Assembly (NCBI GenBank): GCA_017515985.1
Contig: JAFWDV010000017.1
Location: 2,076-26,075 of the forward strand
Reading direction: 5' to 3'
Source of the DNA: Clostridia bacterium
Lineage (GTDB): Bacteria; Bacillota; Clostridia; TANB77; CAG-508
DNA: 24,000 nucleotides
In this document: positions 12,324-19,791 of the stretch, piece after piece
How positions within the stretch are numbered: position 1 is the stretch's first letter
How the letters are laid out: every line of letters begins with the position of its first letter
Translations under genes and position numbers: made by a program
Notes under the pieces: model-generated
What the model was told of the DNA's origin: nothing
What the model saw: the letters and a program-made list of their open reading frames with translations, nothing else
The model's database searches: none

Positions 12324-12393
12324 ACAAAATTCGACACCTATCAATTTAAAATCTATTTTGTTCCATTATATAATTCATCTGGGCATATATCTG
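12324..12393. repeat. direct repeat copy A (70 nt), spanning the last 13 codons plus stop of the DUF2442 gene and 29 nt downstream
   Basis: acaaaattcgacacctatcaatttaaaatctattttgttccattatataattcatctgggcatatatctg. Identical to 13024-13092 except for one extra A. Confidence 0.9.
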
Positions 12394-12583
12394 CTCCGTT
12401 ATCCCATGAAATTGATAAACCAGATATTTTTACAGTGTTAAATAGATCTATATTCTTTAAATCTTTAAATTGTATAAATTCAAGATATGGTTTAACATCA
12501 AATATCCCCTTTTTACCGTCTTCAAAAGTTACCTCAATTTTATAATCTGATAATGCTTTTACATCTATAGCTTTAGGTTTCAT
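12353..12583 (-). CDS. DUF2442-domain protein
   Basis: 76 aa from ATG 12583 (MKPKAIDVKALSDYKIEVTFEDGKKGIFDVKPYL...ISWDNGADICPDELY), the usual DUF2442 pattern. RBS GGAGTG. Lies 5 nt after the DUF4160 stop. Confidence 0.75.
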   Translation of the reverse strand: MKPKAIDVKALSDYKIEVTFEDGKKGIFDVKPYLEFIQFKDLKNIDLFNTVKISGLSISWDNGADICPDELYNGTK

Positions 12584-12588
12584 AAAAA

Positions 12589-12870
12589 TCACTCCAATCC
12601 TTTTATTTTAATGATTTCACCATTTTCATTGTAACTGTAAAATGATGCTCTTAATTCATCTTGATGAAGTTCATACCATGCTTCAACTAACTTCATCTGT
12701 TTTTTCGGTAATTTACCTTCCAAAATTTTACCATTCAAATTCATAGACATTTCAAATTCGTTATATTTTATATGTATATGTGGTTCGTTATGGTGACCAC
12801 CAATTTCTTTGTATATATATATTAGTATTCCATAAAACTGTGATATTAGAGGAATGTTTACCACCTCCAT
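12589..12870 (-). CDS. DUF4160-domain protein (start codon uncertain)
   Basis: ISQFYGILIYIY..GHHNEPHIHIKY matches the DUF4160 N-terminal signature (FYGI...H.PPH.H). DUF4160-DUF2442 pairs are a recurrent two-gene module. Start options are discussed in findings. Confidence 0.7.
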   Translation of the reverse strand: MEVVNIPLISQFYGILIYIYKEIGGHHNEPHIHIKYNEFEMSMNLNGKILEGKLPKKQMKLVEAWYELHQDELRASFYSYNENGEIIKIKGLE

Positions 12871-12951
12871 TATATAAAAATATTTAACTTTTTTCAAGGG
12901 AATTAACTTATAGATAAAAATAAAAACTGCTGACCTAAAACTATAGATATA

Positions 12952-13102: not shown

Positions 13103-14125
13103 TTATTTTTCCTTATATTCATTATATAGCCTTCCTTTGTAGCTAATCTTTCCCACTTTAGCTAATCTACCAACTATAAAGCTCATAGGAATTTTATATC
13201 TTTTTGATACAGATAACAAATTTTCTATATTAGTATTTTTTATGATTATATCCCATACCTCATCATTTACCATTGTTTTAATAGCAAACTCATCTGCTCT
13301 TTGCTCTATCTTGTCATCTCCATCAATAATCGTTTTGCTCTTTGCTCTGTTGTAATCGCTTTTACAATGACCAAGCTCGTGGAATAGCTCAAAGTAAAAG
13401 GAATCTTTAGCAGAATAGTTTTTAGTTATATATATAGCCGGAGTATTTAATTTGACTCTAAAACAACCTCTTACTTTTGTTCCAGATAATGCTTTTTCAC
13501 ATACAAAGATAATACCATACTTATTTAGTATTTCTTGTATTTTATCGATATTTAATCCATCATTATATGAGTATTTCTTTAGCTCATATATTAAATCATC
13601 AAATTTAGAGCTTGTATATTCTCCTACATGTTGATTCTCTGAAATCTTATCACAATGAGCAATCCACAATGCAAGTTTATTGCTATCCTCTCCGCTCTTT
13701 TTAAATAAAACATTTTCCATTAAGCAATTGTTTATTTCAAAATCTTTAACTTTTAAAAAGTCTAAAATATCTATGCTATTTTGTATAGTATTTGTTTCAT
13801 CTTTAAAGTCCACCCATTTTAGCTTCTTAAGTTCATTTAAATGATATTTTTCTTTTAACATCTTTTTAATTTTATCTTCAGATCCATATTGCTTAAGTAG
13901 CTTATTTTGTATTATATTAGCATTCTCAATAGAAACAATTAATTTTGATGAAATACCAGTCAATCTCTCGATAGTAGCAGCCATCTCCAATGTAATACTT
14001 GTTTTTCCATTAATTATTTCATTCATATGTTTTTGTGTAACACCAAGTCTACTCGCAAACTCACTTTGAGATATATTATAGTATTCAAGATAATCTTTTA
14101 AATATTCTCCAAAATGTACCATCAT
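13103..14125 (-). CDS. XRE-family HTH fused to ImmA/IrrE-type (COG2856) zinc metallopeptidase
   Basis: 340 aa. N-terminal HTH ISQSEFASRLGVTQKHMNEIINGKTSITLEMAATIERLTG. C-terminal HExxH in FYFELFHELGHCKSD followed by EQRADEFA. RBS AGGAGGGAGA. Confidence 0.85.
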   Translation of the reverse strand: MMVHFGEYLKDYLEYYNISQSEFASRLGVTQKHMNEIINGKTSITLEMAATIERLTGISSKLIVSIENANIIQNKLLKQYGSEDKIKKMLKEKYHLNELKKLKWVDFKDETNTIQNSIDILDFLKVKDFEINNCLMENVLFKKSGEDSNKLALWIAHCDKISENQHVGEYTSSKFDDLIYELKKYSYNDGLNIDKIQEILNKYGIIFVCEKALSGTKVRGCFRVKLNTPAIYITKNYSAKDSFYFELFHELGHCKSDYNRAKSKTIIDGDDKIEQRADEFAIKTMVNDEVWDIIIKNTNIENLLSVSKRYKIPMSFIVGRLAKVGKISYKGRLYNEYKEK

Positions 14126-14324
14126 TCTCCCTCCTATCCATGTTATAAATAATATGTAAGCTATCTTGCATTACATCTTTCATACTTTCAGAAGAAATAA
14201 GAAACTGCTCTATTTTCTCTAATAGAATCATCTCTCTATTCATATGTTTATTTTTTAATTTAGCTCTGTAATCTTTTGTATATGATTTTGTTTTTATTAT
14301 CTTGATCTTTATCACCTCAGCCAT
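14085..14324 (-). CDS. small upstream ORF (79 aa), possible divergent or degenerate RelE/YafQ-like toxin partner
   Basis: Overlaps the HTH gene by 41 nt. The N-terminal half (KTKSYTKDYRAKLKNK...LLEKIEQFL) resembles the beta-strand/helix start of RelE/YafQ-family toxins, but I cannot find the C-terminal catalytic half. No SD. A TGtTATAAT box ends 7 nt before the ATG, so it may be leaderless. Confidence 0.3.
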   Translation of the reverse strand: MAEVIKIKIIKTKSYTKDYRAKLKNKHMNREMILLEKIEQFLISSESMKDVMQDSLHIIYNMDRRENDGTFWRIFKRLS

Positions 14325-14373
14325 TTATTATATTATAACATTTTAGGTTATAATATACAATATTAATTACAAT

Positions 14374-14400
14374 ATAGGGGCAATAAAATATTGCCCCTAT
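14374..14400. terminator. perfect 12-bp palindromic hairpin downstream of the PBECR4-like gene
   Basis: ataggggcaata aaa tattgcccctat. Weak U-tracts on both strands. Confidence 0.45.
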
Positions 14401-14473
14401 AACATTTTATGGATATTCAAGTATAAATTAAATTAATTTGAAAACGATATTCGTCACACTAATGTTATAATGG

Positions 14474-15175
14474 TTAATCTGATTCTAAATTATAATTATT
14501 TATTTTTGAATTTAAATTTCTGTTTTTTGAATAAAGATTCTTGATATCAATTTCATTCAATATGTGTTGGGTACAAAATATTTCCTCTAAACTCATACAT
14601 TTTTTTATATATGTAATCTCTTTATATTTTTTATCGGTGATAGTTTTTTTTAATATTGCAAGTATATTACATTTACTGATAATTACATCTCTCATATCAG
14701 TATTTAATGCTGTATTCGGCACATAAACATCTTTTTTTACTGCCTTAACAAAACCCATGCAACAATTGATTCCTCCAATTAACTTATCAGTTTGTAGATA
14801 TACTTTAGAATTATCGTAATCACCCACTATATTTGCATTTTTATCTATTTTCATTAAATATGGTAATACTTGTAATTTTAGATTGGTAGTATGGTCTTTA
14901 CATTCTATTTTATACTTATTCAAACTGACAGATCCTCTTTTTAATAAATTATAAAAGCTAAAACTATTTAATGCATTATTGTTACTATCTATAATTATTA
15001 CTCCTGTTAGATGGGCAAAACTTGATTTTGGAAAATAGAGCTCTATCTTCTCGATATTCATTTTATCATTCCTCATGATAAGTAATACTTTCTTGTTCTT
15101 TAGGTTTTCATCATATAACTTCAAACATTTGTATATTATATTCAATATTTGCTTTTGACCAGATGTATTATTCAA
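14474..15175 (-). CDS. PBECR4-like protein (phage Barnase-EndoU-ColicinE5/D-RelE-like nuclease family 4), putative RNase toxin
   Basis: 233 aa. TTG start 6 nt after AGGAGG. The block pattern FPKSSFAHLTGV ... YLQTDKLIGGINCCMGFVK..VYVPNTALNTDMRD matches my recollection of the PBECR4 signature (F.HLTG ... TD.L.G...GF...Y.PNT.L..D.R). Needs HMM confirmation. Confidence 0.6.
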   Translation of the reverse strand: MNNTSGQKQILNIIYKCLKLYDENLKNKKVLLIMRNDKMNIEKIELYFPKSSFAHLTGVIIIDSNNNALNSFSFYNLLKRGSVSLNKYKIECKDHTTNLKLQVLPYLMKIDKNANIVGDYDNSKVYLQTDKLIGGINCCMGFVKAVKKDVYVPNTALNTDMRDVIISKCNILAILKKTITDKKYKEITYIKKCMSLEEIFCTQHILNEIDIKNLYSKNRNLNSKINNYNLESD

Positions 15176-15230
15176 TATAACCTCCTATAAAAAATTGAAA
15201 AGGAGGAGTATTTTCGTACCGCAGTACCAT
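15168..15230 (-). CDS. 20-codon upstream ORF overlapping the PBECR4-like start
   Basis: Strong SD GGGGGAG 6 nt before ATG 15230-15228. MVLRYENTPPFQFFIGGYIE*. The stop TAA lies a few nt past the TTG start of the downstream gene. It could be non-coding leader structure instead. Confidence 0.25.
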   Translation of the reverse strand: MVLRYENTPPFQFFIGGYIE

Positions 15231-15245
15231 AATCACTCCCCCTTA
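15188..15245 (-). terminator. terminator-like hairpin between the tandem repeats and the PBECR4-like gene
   Basis: Minus strand aagggggagt ... (25 nt) ... actcctcctt, 10 bp with one G.U, followed by TTTTCAATTTTTT. Confidence 0.4.
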
Positions 15246-15251
15246 GTGTGC

Positions 15252-15359
15252 GATTTTTATGTTGCCTAACCAACCTGAAAGACTAAATCTTTCCCTGAAT
15301 TTTAAGATTTTTATGTTGCTTAATCAACCTGAAAAGCTATACTTTTCCCTGATTTTAGG
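15252..15359 (-). repeat. 2 x 54-nt exact head-to-tail tandem repeat (43/54 identical), candidate repeat RNA
   Basis: Unit a is 15252-15305 and unit b is 15306-15359, both starting gatttttatgttgc. Each contains a 6-bp hairpin (gaaaga..tctttc versus gaaaag..cttttc) maintained by two compensatory double substitutions. Confidence 0.85.
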
Positions 15360-15364
15360 TTATT

Positions 15365-15399
15365 GTTGCAGTCGCACCTGCCATGCAACAAAGTTGCAT
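15365..15399. promoter_or_regulatory. overlapping GTTGCA/TGCAAC palindromes (operator or alternative RNA hairpins)
   Basis: atgcaac aaa gttgcat (15383-15399) is a perfect 7-3-7 palindrome. gttgca (15365-15370) can alternatively pair with tgcaac (15384-15389). The motif gcaacat recurs in each 54-nt repeat unit on the minus strand. Confidence 0.4.
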
Positions 15400-15416
15400 C
15401 TATTAATATTATATAT

Positions 15417-15445
15417 ATTTTAATATAAAAAATACATCCAGTCAA
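15417..15445 (-). promoter_or_regulatory. sigma-A type promoter heading the repeat/PBECR4 locus
   Basis: Minus strand TTGACT (15445-15440), 17 nt, TAAAAT (15422-15417). Confidence 0.45.
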
Positions 15446-15556: not shown

Positions 15557-16282
15557 CTAATACCCGACTGCAGTTGCTCCATATTCTGCCTGGCTAGCTG
15601 TAAAGCCCTCATATTTTAGCTGATCTATTAAACCGCTTCTTGAAAAAGACATAAGATCTAAATACGATTTAGCTTTCTTAGCAGCTTGCTCATTCCAGTC
15701 TGCTCCACTATTTGCAGCACCATACTCTGCCTCTTCTTTTGAAAACCCTTCGTATTCAAGTTGTCCAACTAATCCTTTTTCAGAAAATGCCATAACTTTT
15801 AAATACTGTTTGGCTTTTGCTACTGCATTTTTCTGACCCATGGTTGTACTATTGTTGGTTGATGTCGTTGGTTCGCTCTTTGTTTGCTCGCTTTTAGAGC
15901 TTTCTTCGTTTTTAGGCTCTGTAGCGGTAACCGTTGATTTTGTCTCACTTTTGCTATTTGATTTTTCTACTTTAGTTGTTTCCTGCTTAGGCTCCTGCTT
16001 ATTATTCTTTTCTTCTTCATTATTGCTCTGATCTGTTGCATTATTATTATTTTCATTTGTTTGTTCAGAATTCTCTTCACCATTTACTTGAGCATATAGC
16101 AAATCATATTGCTGTTTTACATCACTATATTTTGCCTCTAGCTCGTTATAGCTTTGCATCATTTTCTTTTTATCGGAACTATACTTATAATTAAATATCA
16201 AAAAAATTCCAATAAAAATACATGTTATTCCCAATATAATAACCCAAAATAAACTGTTTTTTAAAATATTACTTTTTTTCAT
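15557..16282 (-). CDS. membrane-anchored protein with two C-terminal Ltp-type (host cell surface-exposed lipoprotein) repeats
   Basis: Start at ATG 16282 (MKKSNIL) after AGGAGG. N-terminal TM helix, coiled and low-complexity N/E/K/S/T linker, then a duplicated module AKAKQYLKVMAFSEKGLVGQLEYEGFSKEEAEYG / KKAKSYLDLMSFSRSGLIDQLKYEGFTASQAEYG typical of Pfam Lipoprotein_Ltp. Confidence 0.8.
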   Translation of the reverse strand: MKKSNILKNSLFWVIILGITCIFIGIFLIFNYKYSSDKKKMMQSYNELEAKYSDVKQQYDLLYAQVNGEENSEQTNENNNNATDQSNNEEEKNNKQEPKQETTKVEKSNSKSETKSTVTATEPKNEESSKSEQTKSEPTTSTNNSTTMGQKNAVAKAKQYLKVMAFSEKGLVGQLEYEGFSKEEAEYGAANSGADWNEQAAKKAKSYLDLMSFSRSGLIDQLKYEGFTASQAEYGATAVGY

Positions 16283-16318
16283 AACAAACCTCCTTTTATT
16301 TTTCATTATTGTTTAGTA

Positions 16319-18390: not shown

Positions 18391-19791
18391 TTAGTCGGTA
18401 TTACTTATCCATCCTTTCAAAATCTGCACATCTTCGCTGTTGCTATTATCTATATAGCCAAATAAAGTATCCTGAATTCCTTTATATATCTTACATCTGT
18501 AGTTTTCAGGTATTCGTGAAAAAATATTATTTTCTTGAGCCAAATTAGTTACTGGACAAGTACCACAAAATGGCATATATACACATGAATGACACTTATT
18601 TAGACACTCTAAACACGATGAAACACATAGAGCTTTTGTTGTATCCGATTTAACTAAATCGTTATAATTATTCTCAAAAACATTTCCAATTTTAAAGCTA
18701 TCATCACCCATTTCTGATAACATTCTTCCTTCATCACATGTATATACATTTCCATCGTAATAGTATGCCATTTGTCCTATTGCTCCACCACATGGCGACC
18801 TAAGTTCCATATAATTTATAGGTTCATTTGCTAATATTTTCTTCAAAAAAATACAACTGTGTCTCTCAGATATATTTATTCCTTCTTTATTCTTCTCTAT
18901 AATATACGAGAGAATATTTTTATAAAACTCAATAAATTCTTCAGCAGAATAACCTATTTTTTCCCAATTCCTATCCGCCTTTCCCAGTTGAGTCAATGGT
19001 CTTACAAATAGATCTTTAAATCCTAAATTTATATATTCATCTACAATTTCTTTGTATTTATTTAAACTGTACCTAGTTGTTGTTTGTATAGCAGAAACTG
19101 GAATATTATGTTCTTGTAACTGTTTTATTTTTTTGATAGTTTCATTATATGAATCGTTATTTGCATATGGTCTATTTTTATTCTGTAGCTCCCTATTGCC
19201 ATCAATTGATGTACATACAATCAAATTGTTATCTTTAATAAATTGAATCATGTCATCCGTTAGAAGAGTTAGGTTTGATACTAGATTATATTCTATATAT
19301 TTTCCATTAGCATTTTCATTTGCGTATTTTACAATAAATTTAATAACATCAAAATTCAATAATGGCTCTCCACCTTGAAACTCAATGGTAATATACTTAG
19401 TTGGCGATTGAAGAGCAATGTCAACACATCTCTTAGCAGTATCTATATCCATATTAAAGTTTTCTTTTTGTGATAAATTTCCAGCTTGGCAATATACACA
19501 ATTAAAATTACAATTCTTTGTAACTACAATTATATGTAATGCAGTCGGAGTAAATATATAGTTTTTCTGTTTTCTTACTTCCAAATAAGATTTATTGGCA
19601 AAAATTTCAGAATTTTCGTCGTATATAAATCGCTTCTGTATAAGTTGCTCTTTAATATCATTCTCTAGCTCTTCCTTCATCATTAATTTCTTAAAATTAT
19701 CTTTACTCAAGAACTGATATTTACCTAAATCGTTTGTAATTAAATAATTATTTTCACGCTCTTCAAAATTGAAGTAATTTAACTTGTACAT
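18391..19791 (-). CDS. hxsB: His-Xaa-Ser system radical SAM/SPASM maturase (HxsB-like)
   Basis: 466 aa. CNFNCVYCQAG (Cx3Cx2C), FQGGEPLL, Cys-rich SPASM-type C-terminus CGGAIGQMAYYYDGNVYTCDEG ... CLECLNKCHSCVYMPFCGTCP. Genomic context with hxsA/C/D. Confidence 0.8.
   Translation of the reverse strand: MYKLNYFNFEERENNYLITNDLGKYQFLSKDNFKKLMMKEELENDIKEQLIQKRFIYDENSEIFANKSYLEVRKQKNYIFTPTALHIIVVTKNCNFNCVYCQAGNLSQKENFNMDIDTAKRCVDIALQSPTKYITIEFQGGEPLLNFDVIKFIVKYANENANGKYIEYNLVSNLTLLTDDMIQFIKDNNLIVCTSIDGNRELQNKNRPYANNDSYNETIKKIKQLQEHNIPVSAIQTTTRYSLNKYKEIVDEYINLGFKDLFVRPLTQLGKADRNWEKIGYSAEEFIEFYKNILSYIIEKNKEGINISERHSCIFLKKILANEPINYMELRSPCGGAIGQMAYYYDGNVYTCDEGRMLSEMGDDSFKIGNVFENNYNDLVKSDTTKALCVSSCLECLNKCHSCVYMPFCGTCPVTNLAQENNIFSRIPENYRCKIYKGIQDTLFGYIDNSNSEDVQILKGWISNTD

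Follow-up and report, generated by a model that had tools for sequence, protein, structure and literature searches.

A candidate type III-like toxin-antitoxin family in which PBECR4, a predicted BECR-fold endoribonuclease, is paired with an interlocked two-unit RNA

Introduction

The repeat-array type III toxin-antitoxin systems that we know of (ToxIN, CptIN and TenpIN) draw on only three toxin families, which are related to one another, and the units of their antitoxin RNAs are ~34-45 nt long. A type III locus is recognised by its layout of a promoter, tandem repeats, a terminator and a toxin gene (Blower et al. 2012, as quoted in PMC12283969). In the prophage-borne AbiF/RCd22 system of Clostridioides difficile, a non-coding RNA (ncRNA) with two motifs neutralises AbiF and is reported to act in cis as well as in trans by binding the protein directly (bioRxiv 10.1101/2025.04.15.648962). 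Phage PhiTE carries toxin-less antitoxin-like repeats, pseudo-ToxI, which have been shown experimentally to suppress the host abortive-infection nuclease ToxN (PMC3475682). The PBECR4 family is described as predicted RNases that are metal-independent and have one His within a helix and a Thr or Ser that is C-terminal, and the PBECR domains of phage polyvalent proteins have been proposed to be injected offensive effectors within giant fusions (PMC5512222); neither that paper nor a 2026 BECR survey mentions an RNA partner or a type III system. Here we analyse a module in which a PBECR4 gene follows a tandem-repeat RNA, located in a 24,000-nt stretch of DNA from a Clostridia bacterium (assembly GCA_017515985.1, contig JAFWDV010000017.1, positions 2,076 to 26,075 of the forward strand). 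The whole stretch is referred to as the window, and coordinates given without a locus name are positions in it.

The original prediction for this module was of a type III-like architecture built on an unrelated nuclease, and it called for a profile check of the PBECR4 assignment and for a search of homologues for recurrent, covarying upstream repeats. Each of these computational checks supported it, function being still something that we infer. We put at roughly 70% the probability that the module represents a new toxin-antitoxin family of type III-like design, with a predicted BECR-fold RNase as its toxin. A fuller reading, which we hold to be somewhat better than an even bet, is that the module belongs to a widespread family, so far undescribed, of type III toxin-antitoxin and abortive-infection systems in gut and rumen Bacillota, with further members in Synergistales and Erysipelothrix. 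In this reading the RNase would be caged by two RNA units that reciprocal loop-tail helices lock together as a domain-swapped double pseudoknot, and phages would counter the system with the antitoxin RNA alone.

Results

Layout of the PBECR4 module

The module has an operon-like layout on the minus strand between 15445 and 14474, in the order promoter, 5' hairpin, HP0, two repeats, tail3, terminator-like hairpin, T-tract, ribosome-binding site (RBS) and PBECR4 gene. Its features are as follows (TRF, Tandem Repeats Finder).

15417-15445, minus strand: sigma-70-like promoter TTGACT-17-TAAAAT, matching 10/12 consensus positions
15383-15399, minus strand: 5'-proximal hairpin ATGCAAC-TTT-GTTGCAT, 7 bp (fold prediction)
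15368-15381, minus strand: HP0, a 4-bp hairpin GCAG-GTGCGA-CTGC whose loop pairs with tail3
15307-15359, minus strand: repeat unit 1, 53 nt, ending in an A-rich linker (TRF, covariance-model match, pair counts)
Within unit 1, minus strand: tail1 CCTAA at 15355-15359, hairpin H1 at 15331-15347, and HP1 GTTG-ATTAAG-CAAC at 15315-15328
15254-15306, minus strand: repeat unit 2, 53 nt, ending in an A-rich linker (TRF, covariance-model match, pair counts)
Within unit 2, minus strand: tail2 CTTAA at 15302-15306, hairpin H2 at 15277-15293, and HP2 GTTG-GTTAGG-CAAC at 15261-15274
15248-15253, minus strand: tail3 TCGCAC, the complement of the HP0 loop GTGCGA
15189-15243, minus strand: terminator-like hairpin and T-tract TTTTCAATTTTTT (fold prediction)
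15173-15186, minus strand: RBS AGGAGG and TTG start codon, with 5 nt between them
14474-15175, minus strand: PBECR4 gene, 233 aa, predicted BECR-fold endoribonuclease and candidate toxin (Pfam PF18813 match)
14373-14401, scored on both strands: bidirectional terminator hairpin, 13 pairs, GC-rich, closing the module

This is the layout by which type III loci are recognised, with a hairpin and T-tract ahead of the candidate toxin gene and with tandem repeats between a shared promoter and that terminator. Taken alone, the window promoter is a 10/12 match of a kind that chance would also give in DNA as AT-rich as this. The GTTGCA/TGCAAC palindrome remarked on in the original prediction forms the 7-bp 5' hairpin, whose sequence differs among loci, yet a hairpin is present at this place in most of them. 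TRF reported a repeat at 15252-15357 with a period of 54 and 2.0 copies (84% matches, score 154); the two abutting 54-nt repeats first proposed are thus present at that period, with their identity adjusted to the TRF figure, but measured from tail to tail the unit is 53 nt. The 240-nt leader folds much better than its own shuffles (z = -4.0), and H1 and H2, as read from the sequence, differ by two compensatory pair differences (GAAAAG/CTTTTC against GAAAGA/TCTTTC). A 10-bp hairpin with a T-tract had been noticed beyond the repeats, and both are there, although the hairpin is larger than was thought, being an 18-pair composite stem (15200-15243) capped by a UGCG tetraloop and then followed by TTTTCAATTTTTT. 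In public assemblies the gene starts at an internal ATG, giving 195 aa; the TTG start behind AGGAGG that was originally preferred, giving 233 aa, is the better call because homologues align from its first residues.

Within 15181-15210 of the minus strand, the 3' arm of the terminator hairpin (ACUCCUCC) is complementary to the AGGAGG RBS 15 nt downstream, and in nearly all loci the stem that follows the array is purine-rich on its 5' side and pyrimidine-rich on its 3' side. The complementarity between the 3' arm and the RBS may link translation to termination or to cleavage at tail3.

Much of this layout would also be expected of a leader that is purely a cis-acting 5' untranslated region, i.e. 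an attenuator, a ligand or protein switch, or an autoregulatory site for PBECR4, and that neutralises nothing in trans. The leader sits between promoter and gene, it has at its end a terminator-like hairpin whose 3' arm complements the RBS, and structured leaders of such a kind are common. We return to this explanation with the RNA copies that lack the gene, which bear on it most directly.

The RNA recurs upstream of PBECR4 genes

A protein-first scan, using one genome per species and a 12-sequence alignment, gave 51 loci encoding relatives at 26-51% identity, drawn from Clostridia, Lachnospiraceae, Oscillospiraceae, Filifactor, Proteiniclasticum and Synergistales. TRF detected repeats of 52-56 nt, in about two copies, upstream of 18 of these 51 loci, and on inspection the loci lacking a TRF repeat had the same element with more divergent units. 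A covariance model trained on 32 elements of the larger of two clades, with the window's clade left out, matched all 49 loci that have upstream DNA, each time on the gene strand. In the window it matched 15245-15381 of the minus strand (39 bits, E ~1e-8), which was its only significant match in the 24 kb. The most distant homologue recovered (31% identity) has an upstream RNA scoring 113.6 bits, and the isolated Erysipelothrix phage phi1605, in which the PBECR4 gene is annotated 'hypothetical protein', has one scoring 79.6 bits. The recurrence of upstream repeats in homologues that the original prediction had looked for is therefore borne out, since all of them carry such repeats, 52-56 nt long and usually in two copies. 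The number of units per element ranges from 1 to 3, and the presence of just two, which had been entered as a caveat, is no obstacle, as two units are the family norm.

The order of promoter, repeats, terminator and gene is kept across loci. In 38 of the 49 loci the 80 nt upstream of HP0 contain a promoter with at least 10/12 consensus matches, compared with 2.6% of shuffles, and this gives the predicted TTGACT-17-TAAAAT promoter, which is present in the window, a counterpart at the same position in most of the family. Of the 50 loci that were folded, ~35 show a clear post-array hairpin of 12-19 pairs, and in most of the others the prediction embeds it in a longer fold. Its cap is a YNCG tetraloop in 45/50 loci (UGCG in 32), and a T-rich tract then follows. 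The type of RNA follows the clade of the protein. A conserved protein neighbour, as a possible protein antitoxin, was sought across the homologous loci and none was found. The top-scoring neighbour 'family' in that search consisted of spurious antisense open reading frames (ORFs) lying over the RNA, and was discarded.

In bacterial loci, additional copies of the RNA adjoin paralogous or decayed PBECR4 genes. In Filifactor villosus (L022:2439-4648) there are three tandem RNA elements, of which two precede PBECR4 paralogues and one is an orphan, and these elements are adjoined by a RelE-like/ribbon-helix-helix (RHH) pair. An element with three 56-nt units that are 100% identical (L008:3713-3879) would allow any loop to pair with any tail, and two loci (L042 and L051) have single-unit elements, in which the loop matches its own tail, beside PBECR4 ORFs broken by stop codons.

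Covariation supports a fold in which the units exchange tails

In every repeat unit a short tail is followed by a variable hairpin (H), then by a 4-bp hairpin (HP, usually of the form GTTG-loop-CAAC) and lastly by an A-rich linker. The RNA as a whole comprises five hairpins and three loop-to-tail helices, in which the loop of each unit pairs with the tail of the other (loop1:tail2 and loop2:tail1) and the loop of an upstream half-unit, HP0, pairs with tail3, a half-unit past the array (loop0:tail3). HP0 and the loop-to-tail pairings that bind the array are features beyond those in the original prediction. In the window the swapped pairs are all perfect (TTAAG:CTTAA, TTAGG:CCTAA and GTGCGA:TCGCAC). 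The non-identity of the two units, another of the original caveats, is explained by this exchange, because loop-tail pairing is swapped between units.

We counted pairs by alignment column and analysed the two clades apart, because in the loop regions neither MAFFT nor the covariance model gives a good alignment between the window's clade and the larger one. Across 32 sequences, 94.3% of cells were paired and 27 of the 35 pairs showed changes on both sides, a result reached by 0/500 shuffles; in slid controls the fraction of paired cells fell to 22-43%. The loop1:tail2 helix was 100% paired with all four of its pairs covarying (variants CTGG:CCAG, CGAG:CTCG, CAGG:CCTG, CGGG:CCCG, CAAG:CTTG and TGAG:CTCA), and tail1:loop2 and the six core pairs of loop0:tail3 were likewise 100% paired. 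In the larger clade loop0:tail3 was 91-99% paired, with compensatory changes. For the 10 sequences of the window's clade, loop0:tail3 was 100% paired, and the swapped helices were 94% and 90% paired compared with 88% and 88% for the unswapped arrangement. An independent metagenome set was 99-100% paired under the swapped model. The covariation that had been looked for in the repeats is therefore present as extensive compensatory changes, and selection on the RNA as a folded molecule is strongly supported by it.

We also considered an unswapped model, in which each loop pairs with the tail of its own unit. Across the 32 sequences its two helices were 86% and 75% paired, compared with 100% for the swapped helices, and both-side changes were seen in 2/8 pairs, in one sequence each; this model was rejected.

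The three loop-tail helices are mutually concentric and each forms a pseudoknot with its HP stem, so the leader as modelled is an interlocked double pseudoknot. Since the partners of the two units are swapped, a cut in the linkers would leave the two units as a closed dimer, and by the same pairing pattern such cuts would leave the two flanking pieces paired with each other. The element matches nothing in Rfam 15, which includes ToxI-type and abiF motifs, with the threshold set at E<=10 for the window and at E<=1 for three other loci.

These results bear on a further explanation, in which the repeats act as DNA, as iterons or operators for a neighbouring helix-turn-helix (HTH) protein, or are a chance repeat. 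An HTH_3/Peptidase_M78 protein is indeed encoded ~350 nt downstream of the PBECR4 gene. However, the compensatory changes keep base pairing rather than sequence, every copy is in the orientation of the gene, neither an HTH protein nor any other neighbour is conserved across loci, and a strong terminator parts the HTH gene pair from the module; a chance repeat is excluded by the E-value of the covariance model. The iteron interpretation, which had been named in advance as one that would overturn the RNA reading, therefore fails on RNA-level pairing, gene-strand copies and the lack of a conserved HTH neighbour, and we give the DNA explanation almost no weight.

The PBECR4 protein

The hidden Markov model check of the PBECR4 assignment confirmed it: the ORF matches Pfam PBECR4 (PF18813) with E=7.8e-28 and 98.6 bits against a cut-off of 27, over profile positions 1-187 of 188, and all 25 of the 25 homologues carry PF18813. 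In the homologue alignment H55 (in an HLTG motif), T57, K100 and K131 are invariant and T155 (in a PNT motif) is nearly so. A confident AlphaFold2 model (predicted local distance difference test score, pLDDT, 85.9) places H55 in a helix (50-57) and T155 in a strand. The family is large: it falls into 1,911 clusters when the threshold is 50% identity, and most are stand-alone proteins ~200-240 aa long.

No model in PADLOC or NCBIfam matches the PBECR4 protein, and no homology to ToxN, AbiQ, CptN or TenpN was found by Pfam, PADLOC, PDB sequence search or Foldseek against PDB. Foldseek against viral models returned two unnamed viral proteins (TM 0.6-0.7) and weak polyvalent-protein matches; these modelled structures are consistent with the family and uninformative on the fold. 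A tblastn search with the protein found one phage among isolated phage genomes, phi1605, and no plasmid. The PDB sequence search with the family profile returned only Csm5, at E 0.01, which we set aside as a chance match.

The RNA occurs without the gene, and the gene does not occur without the RNA

We searched for the RNA independently of the protein with an exact 17-base HP2 pattern, and confirmed matches with the covariance model. In viral contigs there were 31 covariance-model matches in 28 of 35 stretches. About one third of the confirmed RNA elements precede PBECR4, and about two thirds have no PBECR4 anywhere in the stretch (stretches of up to 15 kb); two elements keep just the first ~10 codons of PBECR4. 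The neighbours of these viral orphan RNAs are phage genes, encoding a major head protein, DNA polymerase, DNA methyltransferase, exonuclease and NrdD. Among 78 confirmed elements in metagenome contigs, ~33 have a full gene, ~10 a broken or truncated one and ~30 none. A shared alternative gene, as a possible toxin, was sought downstream of orphan RNAs and none was found. A blastn search with the RNA gave no match in isolated phage genomes.

Of 33 orphans checked, about half are preceded at the usual distance by a promoter of their own, and many have kept the terminator hairpin; by these features they are free-standing small-RNA genes. Orphans retain 89-95% of the swapped pairs, and include new compensatory variants (CTATG:CATAG, CAGA:TCTG and GAATGA:TCATTC). 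The converse case, a PBECR4 gene lacking an upstream RNA, was found 0 times among loci with enough upstream DNA. The gene thus depends strictly on the RNA and the RNA often occurs without the gene, an asymmetry that is predicted by a toxin-antidote pair and not by a purely cis-acting leader.

In L110 (1542-2143), and likewise in L113, L121 and L141, two divergent orphan elements lie ~320 nt apart, each with its own promoter and neither with a PBECR4 gene.

The cis-only explanation introduced above does not account well for these observations. Intact copies are frequent in the absence of a downstream PBECR4, including inside phage operons, and about half of the examined orphans have their own promoter, many of them with a terminator hairpin, as would free-standing small-RNA genes. 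The unit number also varies from 1 to 3, and an attenuator would have no evident use for the reciprocal tail swap. We therefore consider it unlikely that the leader acts purely in cis, although of the alternatives it is the one that we would take most seriously.

The orphans also bear on the possibility that the RNA assists the nuclease, as a scaffold, cofactor or specificity subunit, rather than inhibiting it. This would fit with the gene always co-occurring with the RNA and with the RNA type following the protein clade, and PBECR domains in phage polyvalent proteins could use RNA supplied in trans (PMC5512222). However, intact RNAs outlast decayed or deleted genes and the reverse was never seen, which is an asymmetry expected of an antidote; the variable positions of loops and tails find their pairing partners in one another and not in an outside target; and the orphan-bearing stretches have no PBECR4 domain. 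We regard a positive role as improbable, and more so than a purely cis-acting one.

Genes around the module in the window

The 14373-14401 hairpin parts the PBECR4 gene from the next gene pair (13103-14324, minus strand), in which a 79-aa ORF overlaps by 41 nt a gene for a 340-aa HTH_3 and Peptidase_M78 protein. The 340-aa protein matches PD-Lambda-2_B in PADLOC (E 1e-25) and is HigA-like in NCBIfam, and from these matches the pair looks like a separate toxin-antitoxin or defence pair beside the module. Further along the minus strand (12353-12897), adjoining DUF4160 and DUF2442 genes with a 4-nt overlap form a recurrent two-gene cassette. Directly upstream of the module (15557-16306, minus strand) is a gene whose membrane-anchored product has two Ltp repeats (Pfam Lipoprotein_Ltp, E 1e-29), the family to which a phage superinfection-exclusion protein belongs. 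A radical-SAM cluster with HxsD and Peptidase_A24 (His-Xaa-Ser-type) lies a few kb from the module both in the window (18391-19791) and in another locus (L092:2637-6671).

Discussion

A proposed mechanism

The toxin-antitoxin reading suggests the following scheme. A single promoter would give the ~200-nt structured leader, and read-through of a leaky terminator would give the message for the PBECR4 endoribonuclease toxin, so that the terminator would keep the RNA in excess over the toxin message. The RNA would bind and inhibit the nuclease. The nuclease would probably first cut the conserved A-rich linkers, which are candidate cleavage sites, to give two ~53-nt units, and the swapped helices would keep the cut units locked together in a closed complex with the protein, possibly of 2:2 stoichiometry. 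If transcription stopped, e.g. because a phage infects or the element is lost, decay of the RNA would free the nuclease; phages bearing the RNA alone would use it to keep the nuclease inhibited, as an anti-defence measure. In this scheme toxicity, nuclease activity, direct inhibition, processing, stoichiometry and the defence role are all properties that we infer.

Several points weigh against the toxin-antitoxin and anti-defence reading. The toxicity and RNase activity of PBECR4 are predictions, the BECR fold rests on profile analysis, with no Foldseek match in PDB at E<1e-3, and the literature naming PBECR4 amounts to a single incidental paper. The T-tract behind the hairpin is broken in many loci (TTTAAATTTT). 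Two peptide patterns defined the protein-first locus set, and so the set does not reach very distant PBECR4 members, among them the domains in phage polyvalent proteins. A few orphans are visibly decaying, and orphans could in part be remnants of decayed modules and not selected anti-defence genes.

If the toxin-antitoxin reading is correct, an unrelated nuclease fold is added to the repeat-array type III toxins, and the design of promoter, RNA repeats, terminator and toxin has evolved more than once. It would also provide a candidate, testable role for stand-alone PBECR4 proteins, a large family without a studied function. The RNA represents a new covariation-supported structured class with an unusual topology, and is a good target for structural work. 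The phage orphan copies are candidate natural anti-defence RNAs, which bears on phage-host dynamics in the gut and on the choice of therapeutic phages. The module is ~1 kb long and makes clear predictions for compensatory mutagenesis, and is therefore a strong, experimentally tractable candidate.

Comparison with known systems

We know of no inter-unit swapped pairing in the classical type III families, and we found no description of this RNA or of its swapped pairing in Rfam or in the searchable literature. As in ToxIN, CptIN and TenpIN, a single promoter here precedes a short array of structured RNA units in tandem, and then come a terminator and an endoRNase gene (predicted as such here). 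The pseudoknotted units with conserved A-runs, the absence of a protein antitoxin, and the occurrence on chromosomes, mobile elements and phages are also shared with these systems. Having about two repeats is a likeness to cptIN and tenpIN, and having non-identical repeats a likeness to tenpIN. In contrast to all three, the toxin here is the unrelated Pfam PBECR4, the units are longer (52-56 nt), the units pair with each other through swapped loop-tail helices while the flanks pair with each other, and the RNA has no Rfam match. The module falls outside toxIN, cptIN and tenpIN because homology to their toxins was tested and was not found.

Of the other described systems, AbiF/RCd22 is similar in that an ncRNA in which a conserved structured motif occurs twice is found upstream of a toxic RNase-type Abi gene, again in Bacillota, but it differs in both its RNase and its RNA motif, and the abstract describing AbiF/RCd22 does not mention an inter-unit tail swap. 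The orphans in viral contigs have the same layout as pseudo-ToxI, i.e. RNA without toxin, except that here they are full-length and structurally intact and their role is read from genomes alone. The PBECR domains of polyvalent proteins (Iyer et al. 2017, PMC5512222) belong to the same superfamily and have the same predicted catalytic His/Thr configuration, whereas the PBECR4 protein described here stands alone and is paired with an RNA. The module is thus distinct from ToxIN, CptIN and TenpIN and from AbiF/RCd22 in toxin family, in unit length and in the inter-unit tail swap.

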